Shown here piece after piece: positions 1,841 to 31,932 of a stretch of 37,079 nucleotides of DNA. The notes beneath the pieces are model-generated. The model worked only from the letters and a program-made list of their open reading frames with translations. It was not told where the DNA came from and did not search any database. Source of the DNA: a candidate division FCPU426 bacterium. Lineage in GTDB: Bacteria; Oederibacteriota; JAAXVQ01; JAUVAV01. The stretch lies in the NCBI GenBank assembly GCA_016929575.1, contig JAFGIQ010000148.1, forward strand, positions 1-37,079, in the 5' to 3' direction. Made by a program: the position numbers and the translations under genes. The stretch's first letter is position 1. Each line of letters starts with the position of its first letter.

Positions 1841-3667
1841 TCAACTGGCCACGCGCAGGAGTTCGTCGTAGGAGGTGACTCCCGCCAGCACTTTTTTCGC
1901 CATCTCCACCTTTAAGGAAATGAATCCCGGTGTATCCGCAATGGCCTTTTTCATGACCGCTGCGGGGGCCTTGTTGATGATCATATCCCGTATTGCTTCT
2001 TTAATGTGGACAATCTCGTATACCGGCTGCCTTCCCCGGTATCCTGTACGCGAACACTGGTCACACCCGCGGCCCCGGGTGAGCATGGCTTTGCGCCCGG
2101 CCTGAGCACCAAGATACTTGGCAATTTCCGGCGGGGCCTCATATGTCTCCCGGCATTGCGGGCACACCACCCGCACCAGGCGGACATTGACAATGCAGGT
2201 CAGGGCCACGCCCGCCAGATAAGGCTCGATGCCCATGTTCACCATGTATTGTATTGCCGAAACCGGATCGTTGGCATTCAGCGTGGAAATGATAAGATGT
2301 CCCGAGGGCACCGCATCCAACAGCATGCGGGCGATCTCCAGGTCAGTGATTTCCCCCACCAATAATACATCCGCGTCCTGCGCCAACATGGCGTGCACCC
2401 CTGCACGGTAAGAAAGCCCGCGTCGTTCGTTGACCACCACCTGGTTGATGCCCGGCAGCGAGTAGTCAATGTTTTCATCGATTGCCGATACATTGCGGGT
2501 TGGTTGGTTTAAGGCGTTGAGAGTCGCATAAGCAGTGGTGGTACGCCCGCTCTGCCTCGGTCCGGTGATCAGTATCAAACCGTGCGGTTGCTGAATAATT
2601 CTCCGGTAAAGATCATATTGCCCGGGTTCCATGCCGATCTTATCCAGATCCAATATGGCGTTTTCGGTGTTCATGATATGTAAAACAACTTTTTCCCCCC
2701 ACATGGTGGGCGCAATTAAAAGCGACATGGATACGTCTTTTCCCGGTATTTTGAGTTTCAGGCGCCCTTGTTGGGCTTGTCCTTTTGTCTGCGTGTCCAT
2801 TTCCGCCATGACTTTCAAGCGGGTGGAAAGCGCATTGGCCAATGACCGCGGAGGCGACTGGACTTCCTGCAAAATGCCGTCTATCCGCCAACGGATGCGG
2901 AAATTTTTCTCATAGGGTTCAAAGTGTATGTCCGTGGCGCCGACTTTATTGGCTTCCACCAAGACGCTGGTTAAAAAATTGATCACCGGCGTATCTCCCG
3001 CGCCCATGGCGGTGGCAGTGGGAATGGCGGAAACGGGTTCGGGAGTGTTGTCGGCATGGGCGGCGGCGGCGGAAGCGGCGGAAGCCATGGCATTTAAACC
3101 AGAAGCGCCTGGGGGCGTATGCATGGACGCGGCCGGTGCCGGTTTGCCGGCTGCCATGCCCTGGGGCGCCGAACCAAAAGTATCATCCATGGCCGAAGCT
3201 TTGACCAGTTCACCGGTATCTTCCTCGCGGTAGCCGAAATATTTATCCAGGGCGGATTTAATCTCTTTTTCCGAAGAAAACCGCAATTCCAAATCACAGC
3301 GCGTTGTCATTTTGATGTCATCGGTGACAAAGACATTGGTCGGATCAGCCATGGCCAAAAGCAGGGTGTTCCCTTTTTTACTGACCGGGATGACATTCTG
3401 GGTGCGCATCAATTGTTCGGGGATGAGTTTTAATAAGGCGGGTTGAATATTCTGCATCTCGGAAAGAGATATATACGGCACTCCCATCTGGGTCCCCAGA
3501 AAAGCATTGAGGACTTCCAGGGTCACATATCCCTTCCTGACCAATATTTCACCCACTTTTTCTCCGGTTACCTTTTGTTCCTGCAAACATTCCTTTAATT
3601 GTTCCTGACTAATAATATCTTCATCCAGGAGCATTTCGCCGATGCGATGCCCTTTGCCGGTCGCCAT
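1841..3667 (-). CDS. GspE/PilB-family secretion-ATPase homologue with an N-terminal MshEN-type domain; catalytic motifs are degenerate (probable pseudo-ATPase)
   Basis: 608-aa ORF with ATG at 3667 and AGGAGG about 7 nt upstream. Family landmarks are present: TDIHFEP, FRIRWRIDG, VLLVGE (Walker B), SGHLIISTL, and a C-terminal tetracysteine CPQC...CDQC. The Walker A reads GPRQSGRT where the family has GPTGSGKT. Residues 8-60 match the tandem MshEN motif. Residues about 160-225 form an Ala/Pro-rich linker. Confidence 0.85.
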   Translation of the reverse strand: MATGKGHRIGEMLLDEDIISQEQLKECLQEQKVTGEKVGEILVRKGYVTLEVLNAFLGTQMGVPYISLSEMQNIQPALLKLIPEQLMRTQNVIPVSKKGNTLLLAMADPTNVFVTDDIKMTTRCDLELRFSSEKEIKSALDKYFGYREEDTGELVKASAMDDTFGSAPQGMAAGKPAPAASMHTPPGASGLNAMASAASAAAAHADNTPEPVSAIPTATAMGAGDTPVINFLTSVLVEANKVGATDIHFEPYEKNFRIRWRIDGILQEVQSPPRSLANALSTRLKVMAEMDTQTKGQAQQGRLKLKIPGKDVSMSLLIAPTMWGEKVVLHIMNTENAILDLDKIGMEPGQYDLYRRIIQQPHGLILITGPRQSGRTTTAYATLNALNQPTRNVSAIDENIDYSLPGINQVVVNERRGLSYRAGVHAMLAQDADVLLVGEITDLEIARMLLDAVPSGHLIISTLNANDPVSAIQYMVNMGIEPYLAGVALTCIVNVRLVRVVCPQCRETYEAPPEIAKYLGAQAGRKAMLTRGRGCDQCSRTGYRGRQPVYEIVHIKEAIRDMIINKAPAAVMKKAIADTPGFISLKVEMAKKVLAGVTSYDELLRVAS

Positions 3668-3746
3668 ATCCTTCCCTCCTGCCAGGAAATCAGTAAACTG
3701 ATGCCGTCTGATTTTTTAAATATTTCTCCAGCCGATACTTTTCTCT

Positions 3747-3776
3747 ATTTTATGATATATCCCCACATGTGTCCAA
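3747..3776 (-). promoter_or_regulatory. Candidate sigma70-type promoter for the PilB-like gene
   Basis: On the minus strand the sequence reads TTGGAC (3771-3776), an 18-nt spacer, then TAAAAT (3747-3752), about 75 nt upstream of the ATG. A 6-2-6 palindrome ATCAGTTTACTGAT (3689-3702) lies in the leader. Confidence 0.45.
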
Positions 3777-3793
3777 ATTAATTTCTGAAAAAC

Positions 3794-3980
3794 TGAAACC
3801 TCTGAAAAAGATTTTATAGCCATCCGCCTGAATGGATGTTTGGGATGGGGATGAGACGGCGTTCAGCGAAAAAGACTGGTATTGCTACTTTTTCGCTGCC
3901 GAGGCCGCCCACCCACTGGCGGCCGTCCGGCGAAGGCCCATACCAAACATCCGTTTGCAATCAATTTTTCAGAGGTTTCA
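3794..3980. repeat. 187-bp element bounded by perfect 16-bp terminal inverted repeats (MITE-like element or structured RNA)
   Basis: TGAAACCTCTGAAAAA at 3794-3809 is the exact reverse complement of TTTTTCAGAGGTTTCA at 3965-3980. AAC flanks both ends (3791-3793 and 3981-3983). Two internal hairpins are present: CAGCGAAAAAG/CTTTTTCGCTG (3864-3874 with 3888-3898, 11 bp) and GGCCGCC/GGCGGCC (3903-3909 with 3918-3924, 7 bp). The inverted repeats are directly visible; the classification is inference. Confidence 0.6.
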
Positions 3981-4294
3981 AACTGTTACTATCCGGTCTG
4001 CTGAAATCCGCGCCATCATGTCTCATGGGAAGCGCCACCCCCAAAACCAGCAATTGACGCTGATGACACCCGCAACAGACAATGCCACCTGCGCGCGGAA
4101 GCAAAATACTGTTTGCCGTTATTCTATGGTGTTTTTACAGAATTGCAGCCAATGGTATACCTGGCCACCCGCGAGCATCAACACATCCATTGATGCTATG
4201 CAAACTATTTGGGGCAAGGATGGGTTCATGTTCCATGTGAATTTCCCCAATGCCGGCGTTACTCCTTTGGGGTCATGCCTGCAGGCAAAAATAA

Positions 4295-5983
4295 TTATCC
4301 TCCAAAGAGGCCAAACAGGCCCTTTTTCTTGTTGGTTTTGCGAAGTTCGGCTTCGTCGGCCGGCTTATCGCTGGTGACTTCGTCATACTCAACATTTTTC
4401 TGTTTGGCGGCCTCGGGTTTGGCCACTATTTTTGCCTCTGACTGTTCCTTTGCATACTGGGTGATTTCGGTCTCGGTCAGACCGGAATTGGGGGTTATTT
4501 TGATGGCCTGCTCTTTCCCAGTTCCCAAATCTGTCGCTGAAACACGGACAATACCGTTTGCATCCACATCAAAGGAAACCTCGATCTGCGGGACCTCACG
4601 TGGAGCAGCCGGAATGCCCACCAAGTCAAAGGTTCCGATCAATTTGTTGTCCGCCGCCATGGGCTTTTCGCCCTGGTATACCTGTATGCGCACAAAAGTT
4701 TGGTTGTCCTTGGCAGTGGAAAATATTTCTCCCTTGCGCACCGGAATGGTTGAATTCTTCTCTATGATTTTGGACATCATGCCCCCCTCGGTGCGAATGC
4801 CCAGCGAGAAAGGCGTGACATCCAGCAGGAGGATATCGCGGATGTTTCCCTTTAAAACCGAAGCCTGGATGGCGGCGCCGCCGGCTACCGTTTCATCAGG
4901 ATTGACGCCGGGATACGGATCCTTGTTGAACAGCTTCTTGACCGTCTCGCGGACCTTCGGCATGCGCGTCATCCCGCCTACCAGCACCACTTCGTCAATG
5001 TCCTGCGGTTTTAAGCCCGCATCATGCAGCGCCTGTTCACAGGGAGGAATGGTCATCTCAACCAGCTTTTTGGTCAAATCCTCCAGTTTGGCCCGGGTCA
5101 GTTTGGCATTTAAATGTTTCGGTCCCGAACTGTCAGAAGCAATGAACGGCAAAGTGATTTCAGCCACCGGCTTATCGGAAAGTTCGCATTTGGCTTTTTC
5201 CGCCACTTCCTTAAGCCTTTGCAGTGCAATCCGGTCTTGCCGCAGGTCTAGTCTTTCCTTTTTCATAAAATCCTCAATAAGCCAGTCTATGATTTTCTGG
5301 TCAAAATCATCGCCGCCCAAATGGGTGTCGCCGGAAGTCGATTTGACTTCAAAGACGCCGTTGCCCAATTCCAGAATGCTGATATCAAAAGTACCGCCGC
5401 CCAGGTCATAAATGGCGATCTTGCGCTTGGTTTTGCGGTCAAAACCCGAAGCCAGGGAAGCGGCCGTGGGCTCGTTGATGATGCGCAAAACATCCAGCCC
5501 GGCTATTTTCCCGGCGTCTTTTGTGGCTTGGCGCTGGCTGTCATTAAAATACGCCGGACAGGTAATGACCGCCTTCTCGATCTTTTCCCCCAGGAAGGTT
5601 TCGGCGTCACGTTTCATTTTACCCAGAATCATGGCAGATATTTCCGGAGGGGAATATTGCCTGCCGTGCACCTCCACCCGGACATCGCCGTTGGCAGCTG
5701 CCACCAGTTTGTACGGAATGAGTTCCTTGTCTTTGGTGACAGACGGGTCATCCAGTTTCAACCCCATGAAGCGCTTAATGGAAAAAATGGTGCTTTCCGG
5801 ATTGATGACTTCCTGGCGCTTGGCTGGTTCGCCCACAACGATCTCGCCGTTTTTCATAATACTCACCACCGAGGGGGTGGTGCGCATGCCTTCGGTATTT
5901 GGAATAATGGCCAGGTCATTGTCCTGCATGATGGCAGCACAGGAATTGGTGGTGCCCAAATCGATGCCGATTATTTTAGACAT
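4295..5983 (-). CDS. Atypical Hsp70 (DnaK paralogue, HscC-like, helical lid largely missing)
   Basis: 562-aa ORF. Hsp70 signatures are present: [66 protein letters not shown]. The substrate-binding beta-domain is present ([12 protein letters not shown]). The sequence ends about 55 aa after the GLTETEI position, so most of the alpha-helical lid is absent. Confidence 0.93.
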
Positions 5984-6005: not shown

Positions 6006-6551
6006 CTACTTCTTGCTCAATTCATCCAGCCTTCTCAACGTGCGGTGTATCTCCTGGTCTTTGGGATTCAGGCCCATGACCTTTTTAAAATAGTTGCGGG
6101 CCTCGTCATATTTATGCATATCCACCAAACATAAGCCGATATTATACAGCGCCTCCGGAAATTTCGGCCATTGCAGGACGGCATCCCGAAATTTGGCCAT
6201 GGCTTTGGCTTTTTGCCGGTCAAAAAGCATCACCCCGGCTTTGAAGTGCGCCACTGACAATTCCCATTGTTTTTTCTGTTTGCCTTGAAAAAACATGAAT
6301 CTGCGTTCAGGCGCTTTTCTTTTCACCTGGCAATATATTTGAAAATTATGCAGTTTGCGCTTTTCCGGGTTGGAGAGCCACTGGAACGCTTCCACGACTT
6401 TGGCCGTCATTTTATGCGCCCATTCTGCCCGGTCAGGATTATGATCCGGATGGTATTTGTATAAAAGCATCCTGTATGCAGTCTCAATCTCCTGCAACGT
6501 CGCAGCCGGATATACTTCCAGTATCTCGTAATAATTTTCATTCACAGCCAA
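6006..6551 (-). CDS. J-domain protein with C-terminal TPR repeats (dedicated Hsp70 co-chaperone)
   Basis: 181-aa ORF ending 22 nt upstream of the Hsp70 start. The J-domain reads YYEILEV...[16 protein letters not shown], with the HPD tripeptide. The C-terminal part ([45 protein letters not shown]) has a TPR-like pattern. Confidence 0.9.
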
Positions 6552-6560
6552 GCTCCAGTT

Positions 6561-8015
6561 TTAAAATTTTGCGCCCGTCACCCGATACACTTCCAATGTC
6601 TCGCCTGTATCCGGCATCTGCAAATCTTCCACTTTTTCCCCCCGTATCAGGTTGGTAACGCGCCGGAAAATATCCCCGGCCACCATCACCACGGAAAAAG
6701 GCTGATTGCTCATCTTTTGGGTGAATTGCAGGTAATCGCGCACGACTTCCATGGCACCCATGCCGCGGGGTGAAATCAGCGAGCCGATTGCCTCGCCGGA
6801 AGTAATGCCCAGGGAAATATACAGGGGTGATTTTTTTTCCGTCATCCGTCTTTTGTTCATTTCTGCCAGGGCTTTTTGAATGTTGACCGCCGATAAAACT
6901 GCGCGCCGGTCGTCATCCTGATGGGGCTGGGGAATCCCAAATACCGCAATAAAAACATGCTCGGTGAATTTATATACCTGGCCTTCGTACTCAAACAAAA
7001 TCGACATCAATTTGCGAAAATACAACTCCAGGGCCGAGGCCAGGGAGGCTGCGTCCTGCGTGGAGGCCTGTTGCGCAATCTGGGTAAGATCCGCAAAGAA
7101 AATGGTCACCGGGAAACGTTTGCCCTCGCCTTCCAAATGGATGGACGAACTGTCCACAAATCTTTCCTGCACCTCGTTGCTGACATACAGCTCAAAAGAC
7201 GCCTTTATTTTCTCCACTTCCTTCAATTCGTCGGCCACGACGTCAAAAGCATCCTTGATCCGTACTTTTTCCTTCAACTCCTGGACCATTAAATTAAAAC
7301 TTTGCGTCAACAGCCCGATCTCATCGCTGCTTTTGACTGCAGCGGTGACGCCGAGATCCCCTTTGGCCACCCTGGCCATGGCTTCTGTCAGTTCGGCAAT
7401 GGGGCGGGTGATGGTTTTGGAAACCCAAAACGCCCCGCCCAACCCCAGGATCATCATCACCAGGGTCAGTAAAATATTTCTGACTTTCGCCATCATGATT
7501 TCCCGCCTCAAGCTCAGCAGGGAAAAACGAATGTTTACAGTGGCGACCCGCCGCTCTTCTACGATAATATCCCCTGAAATTTTGGCCGTGTTGCCGGGGA
7601 CAAACTCATGCTGGACCAGTTTTTGCAATGCCTCCTCGGTTTCGTCCATGCCTTCCAGCGCGGGATCCAAAGCCGCGGCGGCTGCGGGATTGACAGTGAA
7701 GGCCCGCACGTCCCCTTCATTGCCTATAATGGAAATATACAATATGTTTTCATCCAGATTGCGCACCACTTTGATAAATTCACGAAAGATCGGCCAGGCC
7801 ACCCGTTCCCCGGCCAGCGGTTCGATCAATTTTAAGGCGGCAATCATATTGGCCACATCGGTCATGCGCTGATCCATCTCTTTGTTTTTCAGCAGCTCTT
7901 CCTGGTAAATGGAAAAATATGAGACCACCACCATGATCAGCGCGACCAGGGAAATCACCAGCAGGGTTATTTTATAGGTCAGACCAAACTTGGTCTTGGT
8001 GTTTTTTTTTGCCAT
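6561..8015 (-). CDS. Membrane receptor: two TM helices, an extracytoplasmic sensor domain, HAMP, and a class III nucleotidyl-cyclase-homology domain (apparently degenerate)
   Basis: 484-aa ORF. TM helices lie at about residues 15-37 and 178-197 and flank a segment of about 140 aa. The HAMP domain reads RPIAELTEAMARVAKGDLGV...SDEIGLLTQSFNLM. A coiled coil follows. The cyclase-homology landmarks are VTIFFADL, AVFGIP and SLGITSGEAIG. Confidence 0.85.
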   Translation of the reverse strand: MAKKNTKTKFGLTYKITLLVISLVALIMVVVSYFSIYQEELLKNKEMDQRMTDVANMIAALKLIEPLAGERVAWPIFREFIKVVRNLDENILYISIIGNEGDVRAFTVNPAAAAALDPALEGMDETEEALQKLVQHEFVPGNTAKISGDIIVEERRVATVNIRFSLLSLRREIMMAKVRNILLTLVMMILGLGGAFWVSKTITRPIAELTEAMARVAKGDLGVTAAVKSSDEIGLLTQSFNLMVQELKEKVRIKDAFDVVADELKEVEKIKASFELYVSNEVQERFVDSSSIHLEGEGKRFPVTIFFADLTQIAQQASTQDAASLASALELYFRKLMSILFEYEGQVYKFTEHVFIAVFGIPQPHQDDDRRAVLSAVNIQKALAEMNKRRMTEKKSPLYISLGITSGEAIGSLISPRGMGAMEVVRDYLQFTQKMSNQPFSVVMVAGDIFRRVTNLIRGEKVEDLQMPDTGETLEVYRVTGAKF

Positions 8016-8030: not shown

Positions 8031-9428
8031 TTAAGGAATGTAGGTAAAGCTGTATACACTGCGGTCATCAGAACCAACGACCAACAAGGATTCGGCAATG
8101 ATCGGCGAAGAATTGATCGCATCCCCGGCCGAATAACTCCACTTCTCCTTGCCGTCGTTGGCACGCAAGGCGTATACCGTCTGCCCCGCGCCAATATAGA
8201 CAATACCGTTAAACTCCACGGGCGAGGAAAGCACCGAACCCTTCAGTTTTACTTTCCAGCGGATCCCGCCGGTCTGGCTGTTGACCGCATAGAGGTTTTT
8301 ATCCTTGGAACCGACGTAGAGATATTTCCCGGCCAGGCAGGGCGACGAGGACACCCATCCTTGGGTGGCGCATTTCCAGGCAATTTCACCATTATCCAGA
8401 TTCAAGGCATAGACGCTTTTGTCATCAGAACCGAAGAACACTTTGTCATCACCCACCGCGGCCGAAGAGAATATCTGCCTTTCGGATTTAAATTTCCATT
8501 TTTCTTCCCCGCTGGCTGCATTCAGCGCAAAGAAAGTCCCCCCCAGGGTTCCGATATAAATGATCCCGGATTTAATTTTGGGGCTGGCAGCCACCGGGCC
8601 ATCCAGGGCCTTCTTCCACAGCAAGGCGCCGTTGCCGGCATTATAAGCATACAAGGCGCCGTCCATGGCGCCGATAACCGCCACTCCTCCCACCACTGCC
8701 GGACTGGAAAAACTGATGGCACCGCCGGTCATGGCGCGCCATAAAAGATCCCCCGATTTTGCGGCCAAACAGTACAAATAGGAGTCCTGGGAGCCGATAT
8801 ATACTTTACCCGCTACAATGGAGGGCGAGGACGAAATCGGACCGCCGGTGGCCTTTTCCCATATCTGCCGCCCTTCCTTAGCGGAGATGGCATATATTTT
8901 CCCGTCACCCGAACCGATATAGACAACGCCACCCACCAATGCAGGCGAACTATCGACTTTTTCACCGGTGCGGTGTTTCCATTGCAAATCCAGGGGCGGG
9001 GTGATGGGGGTCCCGGAGGCCGGTTGGCTCTCTGCATTTTGTCGAAACATGGCCCAGCCTGTGGCTTTGGCCGAAGAGATAACCTGAGGGGCTGCCGCCT
9101 TCTCAGGCTGGGCGGCAACCGGTGCGGCTTGTATTTTTTCCTCAACCGCCGCTATCTGTTTCTTTATTTTTTCCACCTGCTTTTGTGAGGTGCGGCCTCC
9201 TGACTGCCTGGCATCAACCAAGGCCCGGCGCAGTTCCTCCAGCTTTTGTTGCTGTTCTGCGATAATCCGCTGTTGTTCGGCGGCTTTTTGCTGCGTTTGG
9301 GCGTTTCCCGAAACATTAAACTGGATCTTAATCTCTTTCTCTTTGCTCGGTTTGCCGCATCCCAGACCCAGTCCCAAAATGACTGGAATGCATACCAGTG
9401 AAAGCACGGCTCCTCTGCGTATGGTCAT
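8031..9428 (-). CDS. Secreted (probably lipid-anchored) PQQ/BamB-like 8-bladed beta-propeller protein with an N-terminal Gln-rich coiled coil
   Basis: The ORF track gives 8031-9455. I prefer the ATG at 9428, which has GGAGG at 9439-9443. That start gives MTIRRGAVLSLVCIPVILGLGLGC, a signal-peptide-like N-terminus with Cys directly after the hydrophobic core. Eight repeats are visible of the type VYIGSGDGKIYAI...G...W. Confidence 0.85.
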   Translation of the reverse strand: MTIRRGAVLSLVCIPVILGLGLGCGKPSKEKEIKIQFNVSGNAQTQQKAAEQQRIIAEQQQKLEELRRALVDARQSGGRTSQKQVEKIKKQIAAVEEKIQAAPVAAQPEKAAAPQVISSAKATGWAMFRQNAESQPASGTPITPPLDLQWKHRTGEKVDSSPALVGGVVYIGSGDGKIYAISAKEGRQIWEKATGGPISSSPSIVAGKVYIGSQDSYLYCLAAKSGDLLWRAMTGGAISFSSPAVVGGVAVIGAMDGALYAYNAGNGALLWKKALDGPVAASPKIKSGIIYIGTLGGTFFALNAASGEEKWKFKSERQIFSSAAVGDDKVFFGSDDKSVYALNLDNGEIAWKCATQGWVSSSPCLAGKYLYVGSKDKNLYAVNSQTGGIRWKVKLKGSVLSSPVEFNGIVYIGAGQTVYALRANDGKEKWSYSAGDAINSSPIIAESLLVVGSDDRSVYSFTYIP

Positions 9429-9477
9429 TTTGTCGTAGCCTCCAAAAATAAACATATTATCCCATTATTTTCATCAA

Positions 9478-13404: not shown

Positions 13405-14040
13405 ATGTTGATATGCAATTTTTCGAGTTTTTTGCATAAATTATGTTACACATTCCTCGGCTTTCACCTTTTCTTCCTCTTTACCTTCACTTTTTGTTTT
13501 TTGCAGCCCAGGAATACGGAGGCCGAGCCCCTAAAAAATCAGGTTTTATTCAATCCTATGGCTTTGGCAGGTAAAAACATATCCTTGGAATATGAAAGAG
13601 CCTTCACCTCCAGTATGGGGCTTGCCATCCGTTCCAATATTGTCTCGGATTGGGAATGGAAAGGCGGCAAGAATGAAAACGAGGCTGGCGACGACTATGA
13701 TTGGATTTATTCGGTGGATGGTTACGGGGCAGGACTGTCAGCCAGGTTTTATCCCTGGGGCAAAGCCCCTGAAGGCTTTCATATCGGCCCGCGTTGTGAT
13801 TACATCTCTTTTTATGGAACTTATGAAGACCGCGCCCGTAACCGTGAAACCGTGGACACTTCAATGACACTGGGAACAGCCCATTTCGAAATCGGGTATA
13901 AAGATGTACTCGGCGGCTTTTTAGTGATGGGCACCTTTGTCGATTTTGGTTATGCTTTTGCCCGGTCGGTGGATGCCTCCTCGTTATTGGCGCTGACGTA
14001 TATCTTTGGCGGCGGCATTTATATTGGGGCAGCCTTTTAG
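13405..14040 (+). CDS. Small hypothetical outer-membrane beta-barrel-like protein
   Basis: 211-aa ORF and the only confident plus-strand gene. It has a hydrophobic N-terminal leader, alternating hydrophobic and Gly/aromatic-rich strands (GTAHFEIGYKDVLGGFLVMGTFVDFGYAF), and a C-terminal ...GGGIYIGAAF ending in Phe, as in many OMP barrels. No specific family was recognised. Confidence 0.6.
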   Translation: MLICNFSSFLHKLCYTFLGFHLFFLFTFTFCFLQPRNTEAEPLKNQVLFNPMALAGKNISLEYERAFTSSMGLAIRSNIVSDWEWKGGKNENEAGDDYDWIYSVDGYGAGLSARFYPWGKAPEGFHIGPRCDYISFYGTYEDRARNRETVDTSMTLGTAHFEIGYKDVLGGFLVMGTFVDFGYAFARSVDASSLLALTYIFGGGIYIGAAF

Positions 14041-15728: not shown

Positions 15729-17033
15729 TTACTGCCGTTCAACAATGGTGGACATCAAATCCGCTTCGCATACCAAATCCTCGCCGACAAAGGCCCGGCC
15801 GTGCATGCGCGCAACCCTGGAGCGGATTTTTTCCACCTCCAGCTCAAAACGCAGCTGATCACCGGGATAGACCGGTTTGCGAAATTTTACATTGTCTATA
15901 CCCATAAACAACACCACCTTTTCCTGCGCATCCGGCTGGCTTTTCATGAGCAGCACCCCGCCGCATTGCGCCATGGCTTCCACAATCAGCACTCCCGGCA
16001 TGATGGGATGCCCCGGAAAATGCCCCTGGAAAAACTGTTCGTTCATGCTTACATTCTTTATCCCAACCACCCTTTTTCCCACTTCCAAATCAATCACCCG
16101 ATCCACCAACAACATGGGATAGCGGTGAGGCAGCATCTGTTCTATTTCCCTGGCTTCAATAATCAATTTTCCCTCCCCCCTTTCTCCGGTATTTTCGCGC
16201 TGCATTTGTGCCTTTACAGCGTGCACAAAACGTGTGTTCATTTCATGCCCCGTGCGTCTGGCGACAAAATGGCCTTCTATTCTTTTGCCTAAAAGGGCCA
16301 AATCGCCTATAAAATCCAGGATTTTATGCAATGCCAGTTCGTGTGGGTGGCGCAGGCTCGTATTGACGGGGCCTTCCTTGCCAATGACCACCGCATTCTC
16401 CTGCGTGCCTCCTTTTGCCAACCCCTGCTCCCGCAACCATTGCACTTCATGCTCCATGCAAAAAGTCCGGCAGGGGGCCACCAATTTCTGAAAGGTCTCC
16501 GGCGTGAGATCAACATCCACTCTCTGGGATTCCAGCCAGGGGTGGTCATATTGCAGAAAATAACTGATGCGTAACCCCGGATATGGCCAGGCGACAATGT
16601 CCTTTTCCCCGTCGCGCAGCACTATCGGAGACTTCAGCCGATAGCTCTTTCTTTCGCTTCCCGGAATATCCTTGATACCAGCCGCCAGGAGGGCTTCCAC
16701 AAAGGGACGGGAAGAACCATCCATGATCGGGGGTTCAGGGGTATCAAGCTCAATATAACAATTATCAATCCCCAATCCGGACACTGCCGCCAGGATGTGT
16801 TCAATCGTATTGACCTCCACCCCCTTATCCCTGAGCGTGGTTCCACGCACGGTCTGCGATACGATTTCCACCCGCGGATGAATTTGGGGCTCCCCGGGAA
16901 GGTCCTTGCGGATAATGACATATCCTGTGTCTGCAGGGGCCGGTGCAAAGGTTATCGTGGAAGGAGTACCCGTATGCAATCCCACTCCCGACAAAGTGGC
17001 GGCTGCGGCCATGGTCCGCTGGCAAGTAACCAT
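15729..17033 (-). CDS. lpxC: Bifunctional LpxC (UDP-3-O-acyl-GlcNAc deacetylase) / FabZ (3-hydroxyacyl-ACP dehydratase) fusion
   Basis: 434-aa ORF. The N-terminal approximately 280 aa are LpxC-like (GVGLHTGTPSTITFAPAPADTGYVI, HKILDFIGDLALLG). The C-terminal approximately 150 aa are a FabZ hot-dog domain (LPHRYPMLLVDRV, FFQGHFPGHPIMPGVLIVEAMAQ). Confidence 0.93.
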   Translation of the reverse strand: MVTCQRTMAAAATLSGVGLHTGTPSTITFAPAPADTGYVIIRKDLPGEPQIHPRVEIVSQTVRGTTLRDKGVEVNTIEHILAAVSGLGIDNCYIELDTPEPPIMDGSSRPFVEALLAAGIKDIPGSERKSYRLKSPIVLRDGEKDIVAWPYPGLRISYFLQYDHPWLESQRVDVDLTPETFQKLVAPCRTFCMEHEVQWLREQGLAKGGTQENAVVIGKEGPVNTSLRHPHELALHKILDFIGDLALLGKRIEGHFVARRTGHEMNTRFVHAVKAQMQRENTGERGEGKLIIEAREIEQMLPHRYPMLLVDRVIDLEVGKRVVGIKNVSMNEQFFQGHFPGHPIMPGVLIVEAMAQCGGVLLMKSQPDAQEKVVLFMGIDNVKFRKPVYPGDQLRFELEVEKIRSRVARMHGRAFVGEDLVCEADLMSTIVERQ

Positions 17034-27021: not shown

Positions 27022-29454
27022 TTACGCCTCGACTTTCACCTCAAACTTGACAACATCATTCAGCGGGCGGGGTTCCACCACGTTCCCATCCTTGATCTCG
27101 CCTTTGAGTATCAGCTCGGCCAGGGGATCTTCAATCAAGCGTTGAATGGCGCGTTTCAAGGGGCGTGCGCCCATCTGGGGATTGTATCCTCTTTCTATTA
27201 AAAAATCCTTGACCTCGATGGTGACATGCAGACTGACATTTTTTTCTTTTAAGCGGAGATTGACATAACCCAGCAAAAGGTCCACGATCTTATCCAGGTG
27301 GCTCCGCTCCAGGTTGTGAAACACGATCACTTCATCCACCCGGTTGAGAAATTCGGGATTAAAAACCTTCTTTACCTCTCCCATCACCTTGTCTTTCATG
27401 CTGCGATGTGTCATTTCGGCCGTCGAGGGTTGAAAACCAATGCCGCCCCCCCCTTTGTCAATAAGGCGGGCGCCGATGTTGCTGGTCATGATGACAACCG
27501 TGTTTTTGAAATCCACCACGCGGCCGTTGTTGTCCGTCAACCGCCCGTCTTCCAGAACCTGCAGCAGGATGTTAAAGACATCGGGATGCGCCTTTTCAAT
27601 CTCGTCAAAGAGAATGACGGAATACGGATTTCGCCTTACCTTTTCGGTCAATTGGCCGCCTTCATCGTGGCCGATGTATCCCGGAGGCGCGCCCACCAAA
27701 CGGGAAACGGCGAATTTTTCCATGTATTCGGACATATCAATCCGGATCAGGGTGTTTTCGTCTTCGAAAAGAAACTCCGCCAGCGCCCGGGCCATTTCCG
27801 TCTTGCCTACGCCGGTCGGCCCCAGGAAGATGAATGACCCGATGGGCCGTTTGGGATCCGCCACACCGGCACGGGATCTGCGCACAGACCGGGAAATGGC
27901 GTTGATGGCCTCCTCCTGTCCGATGATGCGCTTGTGCAGTTCAGCCTCCATGCGCAACAATTTTGCGGATTCCTGTTCTTCCAGCTTGAAAACAGGCACG
28001 CCCGTCCACTTGCTGATGATCACAGCGATCTCTTCCTCGTTGACGCTGACGACGTTTTGGTTTTTGGATTGCTCCCACAACCGCTTTTTCTCCTCTTTTT
28101 TCTGCCGCAGCGCCTTGATCTTGTCCCGCAGATTGGCTGCCCTTTCAAACTCCTGCATTTTGATGGCCGCCTCTTTCTCCTTGTTGATTTCATCAATTTC
28201 ATCCTCGGTTTTTTTAAGGTCAGGCGGCAGAATGGCGGAGGATAAGCGCGCCCTGGCTCCGGCTTCGTCCATGACATCGATAGCCTTGTCGGGCAAAAGC
28301 CTTCCGGAAATGTATCGTTCGGAAAGTCTGGCTGCGGCAACCAAGGCATCATCCGTATAATGCACCCGGTGATGCGCCTCATAGCGGTCGCGAAGTCCTT
28401 TCAATATCTGGATGGTTTCCTCCACACTGGGAGCAACCACCTTGATGGACTGGAAGCGCCTTTCCAGGGCGCCGTCCTTTTCGATATATTTCCGGTACTC
28501 ATCCATGGTGGTGGCGCCAATGCATTGCACCTCCCCTCTGGCCAACGCGGGTTTGAGCATGTTGGAGGCGTCGATGGCTCCCTCGGCCGCGCCGGCCCCC
28601 ACCAGGGTATGCAATTCGTCGATAAAAAGGATAATGCTGGCCGAGGCGGTCTTGATCTCCTGCATAACGGTCTTGAGGCGTTCCTCGAATTCCCCGCGGT
28701 ACTTGGTGCCGGCAACCACGGCTGCCAGGTCCAAGGTGACAATCCGTTTGCCCAGCAACAACTCCGGGATATTGCCCGTCACGATCTTCTGGGCCAGCCC
28801 CTCGGCAATGGCGGTCTTGCCCACGCCGGGTTCGCCGATCAGCACGGGATTATTCTTGGTGCGCCGGCACAATATCTGGATCACACGTTCAATTTCGTCC
28901 TCCCGGCCGATCACCGGATCCAGTTTTCCCTCACGGCTGAGCTGGGTCAGGTCCCGGCCGAATGCATCCAGGGTCGGGGTGTTGGTTTTCGCCTGGCTCT
29001 GCATGTATTTGGGCAAATTCCCGCCTAAAAGATAAATAGTCATCTCCCGCGCCTTTTCAATTCTCAGGTTGAATCTCTCCAGCACCCTGGAAGCCACGCC
29101 CTCGCCTTCGCGAACAAGCCCCAGCAAAATATGCTCGGTGCCAATGTAATTGTGCCCTAGCGCCTGTGCTTCTTCCAGTGCCAGTTCCAGAACTTTTTTA
29201 GCCCGCGGGGTGAAGGGTACTTCACCCAAGGTCATGGTGCCGCCGCCCATGTTGATGGATTTTTCCACCTCCAGCTTGATGCGTTCCAAATCCAATCCCA
29301 AATTTTCCAGTACCGCGGTGGCCACGCCCCCGCCCTCTTTAATCAACCCCAGCAGAAGGTGCTCGGTGCCGATGTAGTCATGTCCCAGGCGCGCCGCTTC
29401 TTCACGCGCCAGATTGATTATTTTCTTTGCCCGTTCGGTAAATTTATCAAACAT
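27022..29454 (-). CDS. clpC: ATP-dependent Clp protease ATP-binding subunit ClpC
   Basis: 810-aa ORF. The N-terminal Clp repeats read [37 protein letters not shown]. The two AAA+ modules carry [13 protein letters not shown] and [20 protein letters not shown]-like middle domain is present ([15 protein letters not shown]). Confidence 0.95.
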
Positions 29455-29678
29455 GATATCTTCCCTCCTGCGCGATGCTTCATTGCTAACCAGGCCAGAT
29501 CACCCAGCCCTGGTTTGCGTACTGATGCCAGCCTGCAAAAAATCCTCTTTAACCCGGCAGCATGCGCGGCCAAAGCCGGCTGCCGGCAAACCTTCACGCC
29601 TTGCCTCTTTCATCCAAACAATCATCGTGAGTGCAAAATTCCACACCTGCTCCCAACCTCTTTTTGCCTGTCCTTATT

Positions 29679-30737
29679 CTAACCGCCCGGCAAGCATCCT
29701 TTCAAGCGTTTCTGCACCCATTCAGCCCGGCGCAAATATTCCTCTTTGCCGCCGAGGGTCTTTTTCGTCAATAATTGCAGATGGGCGGGCTGTATCTGCA
29801 GCAGCAATTCGTTCAAAATGGCCCTGGGCAGGTTTTTGAGCAATCCCAGTTCCGAGCCCAAGCGGAGGGTGGACAACAAATCCAGCGCCTCCTCGAAACC
29901 CAGCAACCGGCAACGGCTGACAATGCCGACAGCCCTGCCGATCTTATCCTCGAGCAGCTTGGGGTCGTCCTTAAGCAGCTTTTGCCGCGCTTCATTTTCC
30001 CGTTCGACGATTTGCCTGGTTACGCCCAGCAAATGGCGGATGATTTCCTCTTCTGTCCGTCCCAGTGTCATTTGGTTGCTCACTTGAAAAAAAACGCTGC
30101 GCAGTTCCGTGCCTTCGCCGTAGAATCCCCGTACCGCCAGCCCCATATGCAACACGGCCTGCAGCACCTGGACAATCCCTCTGGTGAGAGTCAGCGCCGG
30201 CAAATGCAGCATCACCGAGGCCCTCAGTCCTGTACCCACGTTTGTGGGGCAGGCGGTTAAAAATCCGAATTCCCGATGGCTTGCCAAATCAAAGCCCCTG
30301 CTGACCAACTCGTCCAGCAGCTGCGCGTCCTTCAGCGACTTTTCAAGATTCAGGCCCTCATGGATGACCTGCAATCGAAAATGGTCTTCTTCATTGATGA
30401 TGACAGAAGTGGTTTGCCCCGGGCCGGTGGCCAGTCCCGTGAAGTCGGGTTCCCGGGCCGACTCCATATGCACCAGCCCGCGTTCGGCCAAAACGCCGCG
30501 GTAGACATTGTCCAGATCGCGCAAGCGGTTGAACATCACCAATGGTTTGCCCTCATGCGCGCGCATAAAACTTTCCACTTCCCCCAAAAACTTTTCGCGC
30601 TCTTTTTTTTCCATGGCATGAGGAAAACGATAGGTTTTCACATTCCTCGCCAGGCGCACACGCGTTGAGATGACAATGTTTTCCTTCGCCTGGATTTTTT
30701 TCAACCAGGCGGGAAAAGCCATTCTCTTCCCGGTCAT
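29679..30737 (-). CDS. mcsB: Protein arginine kinase McsB
   Basis: 352-aa ORF abutting the mcsA stop. It has a phosphagen-kinase-like domain with IVISTRVRLARNVKTYRFP and FLTACPTNVGTGLRASVMLHLPAL. Confidence 0.92.
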   Translation of the reverse strand: MTGKRMAFPAWLKKIQAKENIVISTRVRLARNVKTYRFPHAMEKKEREKFLGEVESFMRAHEGKPLVMFNRLRDLDNVYRGVLAERGLVHMESAREPDFTGLATGPGQTTSVIINEEDHFRLQVIHEGLNLEKSLKDAQLLDELVSRGFDLASHREFGFLTACPTNVGTGLRASVMLHLPALTLTRGIVQVLQAVLHMGLAVRGFYGEGTELRSVFFQVSNQMTLGRTEEEIIRHLLGVTRQIVERENEARQKLLKDDPKLLEDKIGRAVGIVSRCRLLGFEEALDLLSTLRLGSELGLLKNLPRAILNELLLQIQPAHLQLLTKKTLGGKEEYLRRAEWVQKRLKGCLPGG

Positions 30738-31238
30738 TTATTTTTCCCTGCCTTCCAAATGGCGGATCCGGTCCCGCAATTGGGCCGCCAGTTCAAACTG
30801 CTCGCCGGTAATGGCATGATGCAGTTGATCCTTGATCTCTTTTAGTTCCCTTTGTTTCCTCTTTTTTTCCAGCTCCTGGCTGTACTGCCGGCGTCCCCGG
30901 TGTTCCTCCGATTTATGAAATTGACGGAAAAGCGGCAACAGATTCTCCCGAAAGGCATCATAACAGTCGGCGCAACCAAAGCGCCCCACTTCGCGGAAGT
31001 GCGCAAAAGTCGTGCCGCAGCGCGGACATTTTCCCACTGCCTCGGTTACAGCGGTCGCACCCAATTCCAGGATGGAAGCCAATATATCATGAATAGCCAT
31101 TGCGGGTTTGGCCAACATCTCGCCCAGATGGCGTTTTTGGGCGCACGTTTCGCAAATGTGCATGGCGGTTTGCTTGCCGTTGATCGTTTCGATCAGGTAG
31201 ACGTTAGCCTCTTCCTGATGGCATAGCTGGCATTGCAT
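30738..31238 (-). CDS. mcsA: McsA, activator of protein arginine kinase (zinc-finger plus UVR motif protein)
   Basis: The ORF track starts at a TTG at 31265. I prefer the ATG at 31238, which has GAGGAGGAAG about 9 nt upstream. That start gives MQCQLCHQEEANVYLIETINGKQTAMHICETCAQK, matching the McsA N-terminus. A second zinc motif CPRC...CADC is present, and the C-terminal UVR motif reads EQFELAAQLRDRIRHLE. Confidence 0.88.
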   Translation of the reverse strand: MQCQLCHQEEANVYLIETINGKQTAMHICETCAQKRHLGEMLAKPAMAIHDILASILELGATAVTEAVGKCPRCGTTFAHFREVGRFGCADCYDAFRENLLPLFRQFHKSEEHRGRRQYSQELEKKRKQRELKEIKDQLHHAITGEQFELAAQLRDRIRHLEGREK

Positions 31239-31932
31239 GTCCGTCTGCTTCCTCCTCGCTGACAATCAATCCGTCTTCCAAAGTGATGATGCGGTCGGCT
31301 GATTTTCCCAATTCCGGATTATGGGTGACAACAACAATGGTTTGTTTGTACATCCGGTTCAGTTCCCTGAACAAAGCATGGATATCGCCGGCTGTTTTTC
31401 CGTCCAGGTCCCCGGTCGGCTCGTCCGCCAGCAGAATTTCCGGTTCATTCATCAAGGCGCGGGCAATGGCAACGCGTTGTTGCTCCCCGCCGGACAACTC
31501 CCCCGGCCGGTGCTGGCTGCGTTTGGCCAAGCCCACCTGTTGCAGCAACAACCGTCCCCGTTCGGCCGCCGGCCCGCGTGCCGCTCCCGCGATCAGGGCC
31601 GGCATCATGACGTTTTCCTCGGCCGTAAACTCAGGCAACAAATGGTGCATTTGAAAGACAAACCCGACATGGCGGTTGCGGCTGCGGGACAGGGTTTCAT
31701 CATTTTGCAAAAAAAGCTCCTGGCTTGCTATTTTCACCGAACCGGCGCTGGGGTGCATCAGGCCCCCGGCAATGTTTAAAAGCGTGGTCTTCCCTGCTCC
31801 GGAAGGGCCCATGATCGCCACCACCTCGCCTTTGGCCACGGACAGACTGACGCCTTTGAGCACAGACAACGTCTGCGGGCCTATCAAAAAAGACTTCCGG
31901 ATGTCCCGTATTTCCAGGATGGGTTCATTCAT
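31204..31932 (-). CDS. lolD: Lipoprotein-releasing ABC transporter ATP-binding protein LolD
   Basis: 242-aa ORF. Walker A is GPSGAGKTT. The LolD-type motif is FVFQMHHLLPEFTAEENV. The signature is LSGGEQQRVAIARAL and Walker B is LLADEPTG. It overlaps the lolC/E stop by 8 nt. Confidence 0.9.
   Translation of the reverse strand: MNEPILEIRDIRKSFLIGPQTLSVLKGVSLSVAKGEVVAIMGPSGAGKTTLLNIAGGLMHPSAGSVKIASQELFLQNDETLSRSRNRHVGFVFQMHHLLPEFTAEENVMMPALIAGAARGPAAERGRLLLQQVGLAKRSQHRPGELSGGEQQRVAIARALMNEPEILLADEPTGDLDGKTAGDIHALFRELNRMYKQTIVVVTHNPELGKSADRIITLEDGLIVSEEEADGHAMPAMPSGRG

Follow-up and report, generated by a model that had tools for sequence, protein, structure and literature searches.

The question raised by the locus described here is whether a protein that is built like the type IV pilus ATPase PilB, and that has lost most of the residues of its active site, can still be a motor and, if not, what it may do instead. 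The gene lies on the minus strand of a stretch of 37,079 nucleotides (contig JAFGIQ010000148.1, positions 1 to 37,079, assembly GCA_016929575.1; the whole of it is hereafter called the window) from a candidate division FCPU426 bacterium. An earlier note, made from the letters alone, had pointed to a PilB/GspE homologue with Arg in place of the Walker A Lys and with other eroded motifs, and had read it as probably a non-hydrolysing, nucleotide- or ligand-binding scaffold. The analysis reported here makes it probable that the product is a pseudo-ATPase descended from PilB, or at best an ATPase of severely reduced activity, which acts as a ligand-controlled switch or scaffold that senses cyclic di-GMP (c-di-GMP) and has a dedicated Hsp70 as its partner. 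The fold and the c-di-GMP motif are kept, the catalytic residues are mostly lost and the gene belongs to a constant Hsp70 cassette, so that a signal-sensing switch, and not a motor, is the most likely role. The main clues to function are the MshEN c-di-GMP motif and the cassette of Hsp70, DnaJ, HAMP and propeller genes. The features are listed in Table 1.

Architecture and fold of the PilB-like protein

The open reading frame (ORF) is the largest near the site noted earlier and its reading frame is intact. Its product matches the Pfam families T2SSE (PF00437) with 314.2 bits (cut-off 24.9) over aa 224-605 and MshEN with 62.4 bits over aa 61-149, and its best solved relatives are the PilBs of Geobacter (E ~1e-126; 37-38% identity in the core). 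An AlphaFold2 (AF2) model computed from the family alignment comprises a four-helix bundle and GSPII domain, a disordered linker, the N2D domain and a C-terminal domain; in a Foldseek comparison with PilF and PilB its core reaches target-normalised template-modelling (TM) scores of 0.86-0.87, in agreement with the earlier statement that the fold landmarks are retained. The profile score and the bilobed fold of N2D and C-terminal domain place the protein in the T2SSE superfamily, and it has both the N-terminal GSPII/MshEN domain and the C-terminal tetracysteine zinc motif of a PilB. Its score against the NCBIfam PilB equivalog model TIGR02538 (479.2 bits), however, lies below the cut-off of 675.65; among 60 family members scanned with this model, the best E-value is 2.4e-159. 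Since the three-domain PilB fold, the shape of the P-loop and the zinc motif are all kept, nucleotide is probably still bound.

Table 1. Features of the PilB-like gene and of its cassette, in window coordinates (genes and protein features on the minus strand)
Feature	Position	Residues	Remarks
PilB-like gene (probable pseudo-ATPase)	1841..3667	608 aa plus stop	ORF
Tandem MshEN c-di-GMP-binding motifs (predicted)	3488..3646	8-60	RIGEMLLDEDIISQEQLKECLQEQ, 5-aa spacer, KVGEILVRKGYVTLEVLNAFLGTQ
Remaining GSPII/MshEN domain	3218..3487	61-150	C-terminal end carries the start of the acidic motif
Acidic motif, family-specific	3164-3238	144-168	F[KR]EED[TA]GE[LI]..A...D[DE]..[FL]..AP, at linker start
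Linker	2996..3217	151-224	Rest of acidic motif (to aa 168), then Ala/Pro/Ser-rich disordered stretch
N2D domain	2633..2995	225-345	From alignments
AQQGR	2762-2776	298-302	Within N2D domain
S315, replacing arginine finger R271	2723-2725	315	N2D; role from PMC5424180
H330, replacing arginine finger R286	2678-2680	330	N2D; role from PMC5424180
Degenerate Walker A GPRQSGRT	2540..2563	369-376	Reverse complement ggaccgaggcagagcgggcgtacc
Degenerate Asp box DENID	2465..2479	397-401	D401 replaces Mg-binding Glu E357
VHAMLAQDAD ... GEITD	2342..2398	424-433; 438-442	
Degenerate His box SGHLIISTLNAN	2270..2305	455-466	Contains STLNAN; N464 replaces H420
Tetracysteine zinc motif	2054..2164		C502, C505, C535, C538 retained
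Spacer between Hsp70 and PilB-like genes	3668..4294		627 bp; 4-185 bp in six related loci
Cassette Hsp70	4295..5983	562 aa	Pfam HSP70, 754 bits; nucleotide-binding and substrate-binding domains intact
Cassette J-protein	6006..6551	181 aa	J domain with HPD, and TPR domain
Cassette membrane protein	6561..8015	484 aa	Transmembrane helix, ~140 aa outside the cytoplasm, transmembrane helix, HAMP, degenerate class III cyclase-homology domain
Cassette lipoprotein	8031..9455		Signal peptide with GC lipobox, coiled coil, PQQ/BamB-like beta-propeller

Active-site residues compared with canonical PilBs

Residue roles were taken from McCallum 2017 (PMC5424180), in the numbering of Geobacter metallireducens PilB, and were mapped through the Geobacter alignment (Table 2). 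Two sets served for comparison, namely 129 canonical PilBs from two homology searches and the 148 cluster representatives that came nearest when 1.84 billion proteins were searched exhaustively with a profile. R271, R286, T327, K331, E357, E395, H413, H420 and R455 are all invariant in the 129 canonical PilBs; of the invariant catalytic set of PilB, only the catalytic Glu is kept in the window protein. When 21 motif positions are scored, 92 of the 148 representatives have no deviation and 33 have one, and the window protein deviates at 16; the Walker A Lys is present in all 148. As far as alignment can tell, the residues that drive hydrolysis and those that couple neighbouring subunits are thus lost, and ATP hydrolysis would be poor or absent.

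The Walker A sequence GPRQSGRT is encoded by the codons GGA CCG AGG CAG AGC GGG CGT ACC (reverse complement of 2540-2563), as had been read earlier, and the other substitutions on record (DENID, VHAMLAQDAD, GEITD, STLNAN and AQQGR) are all present; the last of these falls in the N2D domain and outside the span 2270-2563 to which the set had been assigned. The stretch from VHAMLAQDAD to GEITD still contains an atypical Walker B and the catalytic Glu E439; two motif arginines and R397 are gone. The four cysteines, correctly described as retained, are invariant or near-invariant in the family alignment. The Geobacter alignment reveals further losses, at R271, R286 and E357, which the earlier note had not picked out.

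Outside the family described below, four PilB-like cluster representatives (P0287, P0366, P0413 and P0358) deviate at 7-13 of the 21 motif positions, so degenerate PilB-like proteins have arisen independently elsewhere.

Table 2. Functional positions of PilB (G. metallireducens numbering) and their state in the window protein and in the two clades of the family
Position	Role	Window protein	Clade A	Clade B
R271	Arginine finger	S315	Lost, 27/27	Lost, 45/45
R286	Arginine finger	H330	His, 18/27	Lys, 24/45; Thr, 1/45
T327	Walker A Thr	R371		
K331	Walker A Lys	R375	Lys kept, 23/27; changed to Arg twice in the tree (P0001-P0003; P0026)	Lys kept, 45/45
E357	Asp-box Glu binding Mg	D401	Asp, 27/27	Ser in most
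Arg of LRQD		Lost	Lost in all	Lost in all
E395	Catalytic Glu	E439	Changed three times in the tree: Asp (P0002, P0003), Gly/Ser (P0006-P0009), Gln (P0025)	Asp fixed
R397		Lost	Kept, 2/26	None kept
H413	His-box His	H457		
H420	His-box His contacting gamma-phosphate	N464	Lost four times in the tree: Asn (P0001-P0003), Pro (P0013), Ala (P0025), Pro (P0026)	Arg fixed
R455	Inter-chain, hexamer-contact Arg	R499	Kept, 27/27	Kept, 44/45

Family, clades and order of the residue losses

In a homology search with the window protein, identity drops abruptly from 59-81% in 26 clusters (clade A) to no more than 41% in the canonical PilBs. Among the source names given for clade A are candidate division FCPU426 and Candidatus Firestonebacteria, and one GTDB representative (L005) is an FCPU426 metagenome-assembled genome (MAG). 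The 41% match P0028 is also degenerate, and a search started from it retrieves a sister clade (clade B) of about 45 clusters, which belong, where named, to Goldbacteria or Goldiibacteriota. Outside itself, clade B finds its best matches in clade A (~540 bits), above the canonical PilBs (464 bits or less). With taxonomy taken from MAG labels, the family therefore spans two clades in three candidate phyla (FCPU426, Firestonebacteria and Goldbacteria-like bacteria), with 27 members in clade A, the window protein included, and 45 in clade B, that is 72 in total. No third clade is present in the exhaustive profile search of 1.84 billion proteins; after clustering at 50%, the family is seen as two representatives (1075 and 981 bits), and the next match scores 666 bits. 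A scan of a genome collection with the window protein yielded a single family member (the FCPU426 representative L005) and otherwise canonical PilBs, because the search patterns were derived from the query alone.

The distribution of the substitutions over the two clades (Table 2) gives their order. The loss of R271 and of the LRQD Arg (Asp or Glu in most members) is common to both clades, and so are the loss of the Pro of DPD, that of R397 in nearly all members, the change of T421 to Ala, that of the first Asp-box Glu to Asp and the loss of the Mg-binding Glu and of the Asp of QDGR; these derived states indicate that the active site had already been remodelled in the common ancestor. The Walker A Arg, by contrast, is found only in the window protein and its two closest relatives (P0001-P0003) and, separately, in P0026. 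The Lys is kept by most of the family, so the change from Lys to Arg is late and lineage-specific. Emphasis on this substitution, as in the earlier note, was therefore misplaced. Of the orthologues, which the note had proposed to check for the change, the two closest clusters share it and most other members do not. The scaffold reading itself stands on broader grounds, which are the loss of both arginine fingers, of the Mg-binding Glu and of the His-box His and the recurrent losses in sister lineages. In the neighbour-joining tree of clade A, K331, H420 and E395 have each been replaced more than once, and clade B, which has fixed other residues at the last two, mostly lacks the Mg-binding Walker A Thr as well (GPTNSGKA). 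Such recurrent and varied changes at residues that are constant in real motors are what relaxed selection on catalysis would predict.

The c-di-GMP motif and the shift of constraint

The MshEN domain is defined by two tandem 24-residue motifs, RLGxx(L/V/I)(L/V/I)xxG(L/V/I)(L/V/I)xxxxLxxxLxxQ, separated by a spacer of 5 residues (Wang 2016, PMC5013675). Two such motifs, at aa 8-31 and aa 37-60 with a 5-residue spacer, are found in the window protein, which scores 60.9 bits against the NCBIfam model NF053729 (cut-off 38); all 60 family members scanned match this model. Of the twelve residues that Wang 2016 names as key, both clades conserve eleven: ten never vary, and the eleventh is either Val or Ile. 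The window protein's clade keeps the first Arg of motif I (Arg 8), and the first residue of motif II is Lys instead of Arg, which the relaxed motif permits; the sole departure of the window protein from the relaxed motif is an Asp at the turn Gly of motif I.

The N-terminal motif is the most conserved segment of the family. Indeed, identity is 88% in the c-di-GMP motif (aa 8-60) and 67% in the ATPase domain (aa 346-608) within clade A, and 58% and 40%, respectively, between clades A and B, whereas canonical PilBs of similar divergence show the reverse: 58% in the motif and 70% in the ATPase domain at an overall identity of 60-85%, and 40% and 52%, respectively, at 35-50%. Judging from these identities, it is the N-terminal motif, and no longer the ATPase, that is under the stronger constraint; this motif most likely still binds c-di-GMP.

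Furthermore, the linker between the two parts of the protein differs in length and sequence among orthologues and has a predicted local distance difference test score below 50 at aa 150-217 and 219-224 in the AF2 model. At its start stands the acidic motif, which is common to both clades and is not present in the canonical PilBs of the Geobacter alignment; the TPR or the Hsp70 partner may dock here.

A five-gene cassette with a dedicated Hsp70

The PilB-like gene is the last of five genes, which encode a lipoprotein with a beta-propeller, a membrane protein with HAMP and pseudo-cyclase domains, a DnaJ-TPR protein, an Hsp70 and the PilB-like protein. The five genes occur in identical order in all seven loci examined, namely the window and four related loci of clade A (L001, L003, L087 and L088) and two loci of clade B (L085 and L094). 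In the window, the gaps between the first four genes are 9-22 bp. The four related clade-A loci have smc and recJ on either side of the cassette, and the flanks in clade B are quite different. Identities between the window and clade B (Hsp70 64-68%, J-TPR protein 45-46%, PilB-like protein 43-44%, propeller 33-34%, HAMP protein 28-29%) show that all five genes are orthologous. Since order and orthology are kept despite the different flanks, the cassette is a functional unit.

The two chaperone partners look functional from their motifs. The Hsp70 has intact motifs in its nucleotide-binding domain and the interdomain linker LLLDVTP, a motif that differs in clade B, and the HPD of the J domain is present at all seven loci. 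The Hsp70 lacks the C-terminal lid, the DnaK model being matched only to position 526 of 625, and ends in a conserved MinD-like tail (4295-4330, minus strand) which is the same in L001, L003, L087 and L088. The clade-A tail closely resembles the membrane-targeting sequence of Escherichia coli MinD, KGFLKRLFGG (PMC5471200), and this suggests that the Hsp70 is tethered to the membrane; the tail in clade B is KKK(K)SIFDIFKKKE[DR].

The membrane protein matches Pfam HAMP (62.7 bits) and Guanylate_cyc (27.6 bits). Its cyclase-homology domain keeps the first metal-binding Asp (FADL) and has lost the second (KFTEH against FMGDG of Cya2, 2w01, the general form in active cyclases being xxGDG), and its C-terminal half does not align, a pattern that is conserved in the orthologues. 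The two metal-binding Asp and the Asn/Arg pair of a class III nucleotidyl cyclase are therefore not all there, and the cassette holds a pseudo-cyclase besides a pseudo-ATPase. Searches with the HAMP protein for further cassettes gave only clade-A orthologues and unrelated cyclases; the distant match P0264 proved to be an ordinary HAMP cyclase outside any cassette. For the lipoprotein, comparison with orthologues suggests that the true start is Met10, at nt 9428.

The long spacer upstream of the PilB-like gene has no Rfam match and no similarity to the related loci or to the rest of the window, and the plus-strand ORF at 3832-4377 has no Pfam domain; a promoter-like site at 3775-3747 (minus strand) matches at 10 of 12 positions, which is not above chance. 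A hidden element in the spacer was rejected accordingly, there being no Rfam, homology or Pfam support. A defence system was likewise rejected: PADLOC was empty for four cassette proteins, with only weak PycC matches to the dead cyclase domain, and the cassette is set in a conserved core-genome region (smc, recJ and lpx genes).

Two further observations concern the clade-B loci. The gene that follows the PilB-like gene (L085, 8352-10094; L094, 12068-13771) encodes a protein of 567-580 aa that resembles FlgD_ig/Big_1 weakly and is a candidate for a sixth cassette protein in this clade. In L094, genes with MCP-signal and PilZ domains lie just upstream of the cassette.

Alternative explanations

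Several observations weigh against the reading of the protein as a pseudo-ATPase switch. The window protein still has E439 as its catalytic Glu, H457 and, in Walker A, the glycines together with the Ser and the Thr, and a basic residue (Lys or Arg) has been gained at position 3 of the P-loop (position 371) by all 27 clade-A members; this residue could offset the lost arginines and allow a slow, non-canonical hydrolysis. The Walker A Lys is kept by most members, a sign that the binding of nucleotide, and perhaps a slow turnover of it, is still of importance. In the c-di-GMP motif, clade B has Leu for the first Arg of motif I, and the turn Gly of motif I is Asp in the window protein and Asp or Glu in the family; the PilBs of Geobacter and Myxococcus have Asn there. 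Finally, the link to the Hsp70, the J-protein and the HAMP protein is read from gene order.

The main rival is accordingly an active ATPase with a non-canonical site, in which R371 and the kept catalytic Glu would offset the lost arginine fingers and which would power a membrane process with the HAMP protein and the propeller. The window gene is under strong purifying selection (pN 0.115 and pS 0.815, the proportions of nonsynonymous and synonymous differences, against the closest orthologue, with synonymous sites saturated), and this includes the ATPase domain taken alone (pN 0.13). Moreover, the Walker A shape GxxxxG[KR][TS], E439, H457 and the inter-chain R499 are kept, the position-3 residue is basic throughout clade A, and the Asp-box change is a conservative swap of ED for DE, with Asp for Glu at the Mg-binding site. 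Yet 16 of the 21 motif positions deviate, and both arginine fingers and the gamma-phosphate His are lost. In P-loop NTPases, the change of the Walker A Lys to Arg usually leaves nucleotide binding and blocks hydrolysis. Close relatives have lost even the catalytic Glu (Gly/Ser in P0006-P0009, Gln in P0025), which is hard to square with selection for catalysis, and clade B has neither the basic residue at position 3 nor the Mg-binding Thr and Glu. A working ATPase is therefore considered unlikely, while remaining the foremost competitor of the pseudo-ATPase.

An explanation with a poorer chance still is that of a regulatory or poison subunit of a type IV pilus motor, which would mix or compete with a canonical PilB in response to c-di-GMP, the Hsp70 linkage being secondary. 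The descent from PilB and the almost universal retention of the hexamer-contact Arg agree with it, and a dependent secondary ATPase has a precedent on the retraction side, where PilU needs PilT. The nearest canonical PilBs (P0036, P0030) sit in pilB-pilT-pilC(-pilMNO-pilQ) operons, and such operons of related canonical pilB genes are located directly downstream of dnaK/dnaJ. However, the linkage that is conserved here is with the Hsp70, DnaJ-TPR, HAMP and propeller genes, and no pilus gene adjoins the cassette at any of the seven loci. Indeed, the 37-kb window and the four related clade-A loci, covered over about 20 kb around each hit, contain no pilT, pilC, pilMNOPQ or pilin-like gene. In clade B, covered to the same extent, no such gene is next to the cassette in either locus; some 6 kb downstream of it, L085 carries a gene with a weak N_methyl match (pilin-type signal). 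The gene linkage of a pilB (pilT, pilC, pilMNOPQ and pilins) is thus seen at none of the seven.

In the nearest canonical loci (L090, 5075-9743; L091, 3555-9734), the pilB-pilT-pilC operon is directly downstream of (grpE-dnaK-)dnaJ-rsmE. Duplication of such a dnaK/dnaJ-pilB region could be the origin of the linkage between Hsp70, J-protein and PilB-like protein.

The last explanation to be weighed is an artefact or a decaying gene. The Walker A Arg is also present in the two nearest orthologue clusters (81% and 79% identity; independent samples), and its codon (2543-2545) is CGT in the window, CGG in L088 and L005 and AAA (Lys) in more distant orthologues. The Arg codons are two mutational steps away from AAA, and the comparison shows that the Arg is old and not a read error; the sequencing error that had been named as a possible refutation is thus not borne out. 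A sequencing or assembly fault in the Walker A codon, or the drift of a duplicated copy towards a pseudogene, can be dismissed for practical purposes: many catalytic residues are gone and the organism is uncultured and presumably known from a metagenome assembly, but the frame is intact, independent assemblies carry the Arg through different synonymous codons, pN is far below pS and three candidate phyla conserve the family within a cassette of constant composition.

Lost catalytic residues, purifying selection and conservation across lineages, all of them seen here, together are the marks of a pseudoenzyme. The non-hydrolysing, ligand-binding scaffold of the earlier note fits the residue losses, the selection and the c-di-GMP motif, the loss of hydrolysis as such still being deduced from the letters.

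Proposed role of the cassette

The products of the cassette would span the cell envelope, with a propeller lipoprotein in the periplasm, the HAMP protein in the inner membrane, and the J-TPR protein, the Hsp70 and the PilB-like protein. The PilB-like protein would be a ligand-controlled conformational switch or scaffold whose state is set by c-di-GMP and by bound nucleotide. The Hsp70/J pair, at the membrane, would read or remodel this state beside the HAMP pseudo-cyclase and its propeller partner, and the Hsp70 would be the only energy-consuming enzyme of the module. The physical contacts with the Hsp70, the J-protein and the HAMP protein, and the direction of signalling, are likewise put forward on a conditional basis. 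More tentatively, and with rather less confidence than is placed in the pseudo-ATPase, the cassette may be an undescribed trans-envelope system, restricted to FCPU426, Firestonebacteria and Goldbacteria, in which a former pilus motor has become a c-di-GMP-gated client or regulator of an Hsp70.

Comparison with known systems

The GSPII/MshEN, N2D and tetracysteine ATPase architecture is that of the type IVa PilBs of Geobacter metallireducens and G. sulfurreducens (PDB 5TSG, 5TSH and 5ZFR) and of Thermus PilF. In the window protein, neither arginine finger of PilB survives, and the same holds for the Mg-binding Glu of the Asp box, the Lys of Walker A and the His-box His; its gene stands outside any pil operon, and its long disordered linker carries an acidic motif peculiar to the family. 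The tandem 24-residue motifs with their 5-residue spacer are those of MshE from Vibrio cholerae (PDB 5HTL; PMC5013675), but MshE is an active pilus ATPase and the attached ATPase is degenerate here.

The closest analogy is with Myxococcus xanthus, in which PilB acts upstream of the Hsp70-like StkA and of the HAMP receptor DifA in the regulation of exopolysaccharide and in which the ATPase-dead PilB K327A is a dominant gain-of-function signal (PMC5544727, PMC4319316), that is, a hydrolysis-independent signalling by PilB through an Hsp70 paralogue and a HAMP membrane protein. There, however, PilB also works as the pilus motor and the genes are unlinked, whereas here the PilB-like, Hsp70, J-protein and HAMP genes form one cassette, catalysis seems to have been abandoned in the course of natural evolution, and chemosensory genes of the Dif type are absent. 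The PilZ-DnaK chaperones CsdK1 and CsdK2 of M. xanthus (PMC10313047) likewise combine a c-di-GMP receptor module with a specialised Hsp70 paralogue; in these, PilZ is fused to DnaK, and here the putative MshEN receptor is part of a separate PilB-like protein encoded beside the Hsp70. FimX, with its inactive GGDEF and EAL domains, is likewise an enzyme kept as a ligand-binding regulatory module, although the fold differs; the dead cyclase domain of the co-encoded HAMP protein is a comparable case.

A 2024 review on the regulation of PilB ascribes the catalytic Glu and the Walker motifs to every extension ATPase. No naturally degenerate family of PilB/GspE-type ATPases is described in that review or was found in literature searches, which also gave no description of the five-gene cassette. 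The family is best seen as a probable pseudoenzyme that descends from a secretion ATPase and has entered a gene context new for such proteins.

Neighbouring genes in the window

Along the minus strand, the order of genes in the window is recJ, the PilB-like gene, the rest of the cassette, smc, lpxI, lpxA, lpxC-fabZ, lpxD, skp and bamA, followed by a tamB-like gene, clpC, mcsB, an mcsA-like gene, lolD/E-like genes and lysS. LpxC is fused to a FabZ/FabA-like dehydratase in one ORF of 434 aa (15729-17033, minus strand). The clpC, mcsB (arginine kinase) and mcsA-like UVR-motif genes (27022-31265, minus strand) lie beside genes of outer-membrane biogenesis and constitute a Firmicute-type ClpC/McsB module in what appears to be a diderm organism. 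As listed, the mcsA-like ORF (30738-31265) shares 62 nt with the ORF of the ABC ATPase upstream of it (31204-31932). The sole sizeable ORF on the plus strand (13405-14040; 211 aa) has no Pfam match, the rest of the window being coded on the minus strand; in L003, a gene of 201 aa, also with no Pfam match and also on the opposite strand to its neighbours, occupies the same place between lpxI and smc.

Significance

Since PilB/GspE-type ATPases are treated as obligate motors, a catalysis-free family would show that the fold can be reused purely for signalling. The fixed linkage with an Hsp70/J pair and a HAMP protein provides a compact system for asking how the conformation of PilB reaches an Hsp70, a question that has been open in the regulation of Myxococcus exopolysaccharide since PilB and StkA were placed in one pathway. 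If the trans-envelope system is real, nature would have hard-wired in it the route from PilB to StkA to DifA that genetics points to in Myxococcus. For the organisms concerned, the database names "PilB", "TadA" and "GspE/PulE family" are misleading, as they would wrongly imply a capacity for pili in these candidate phyla.

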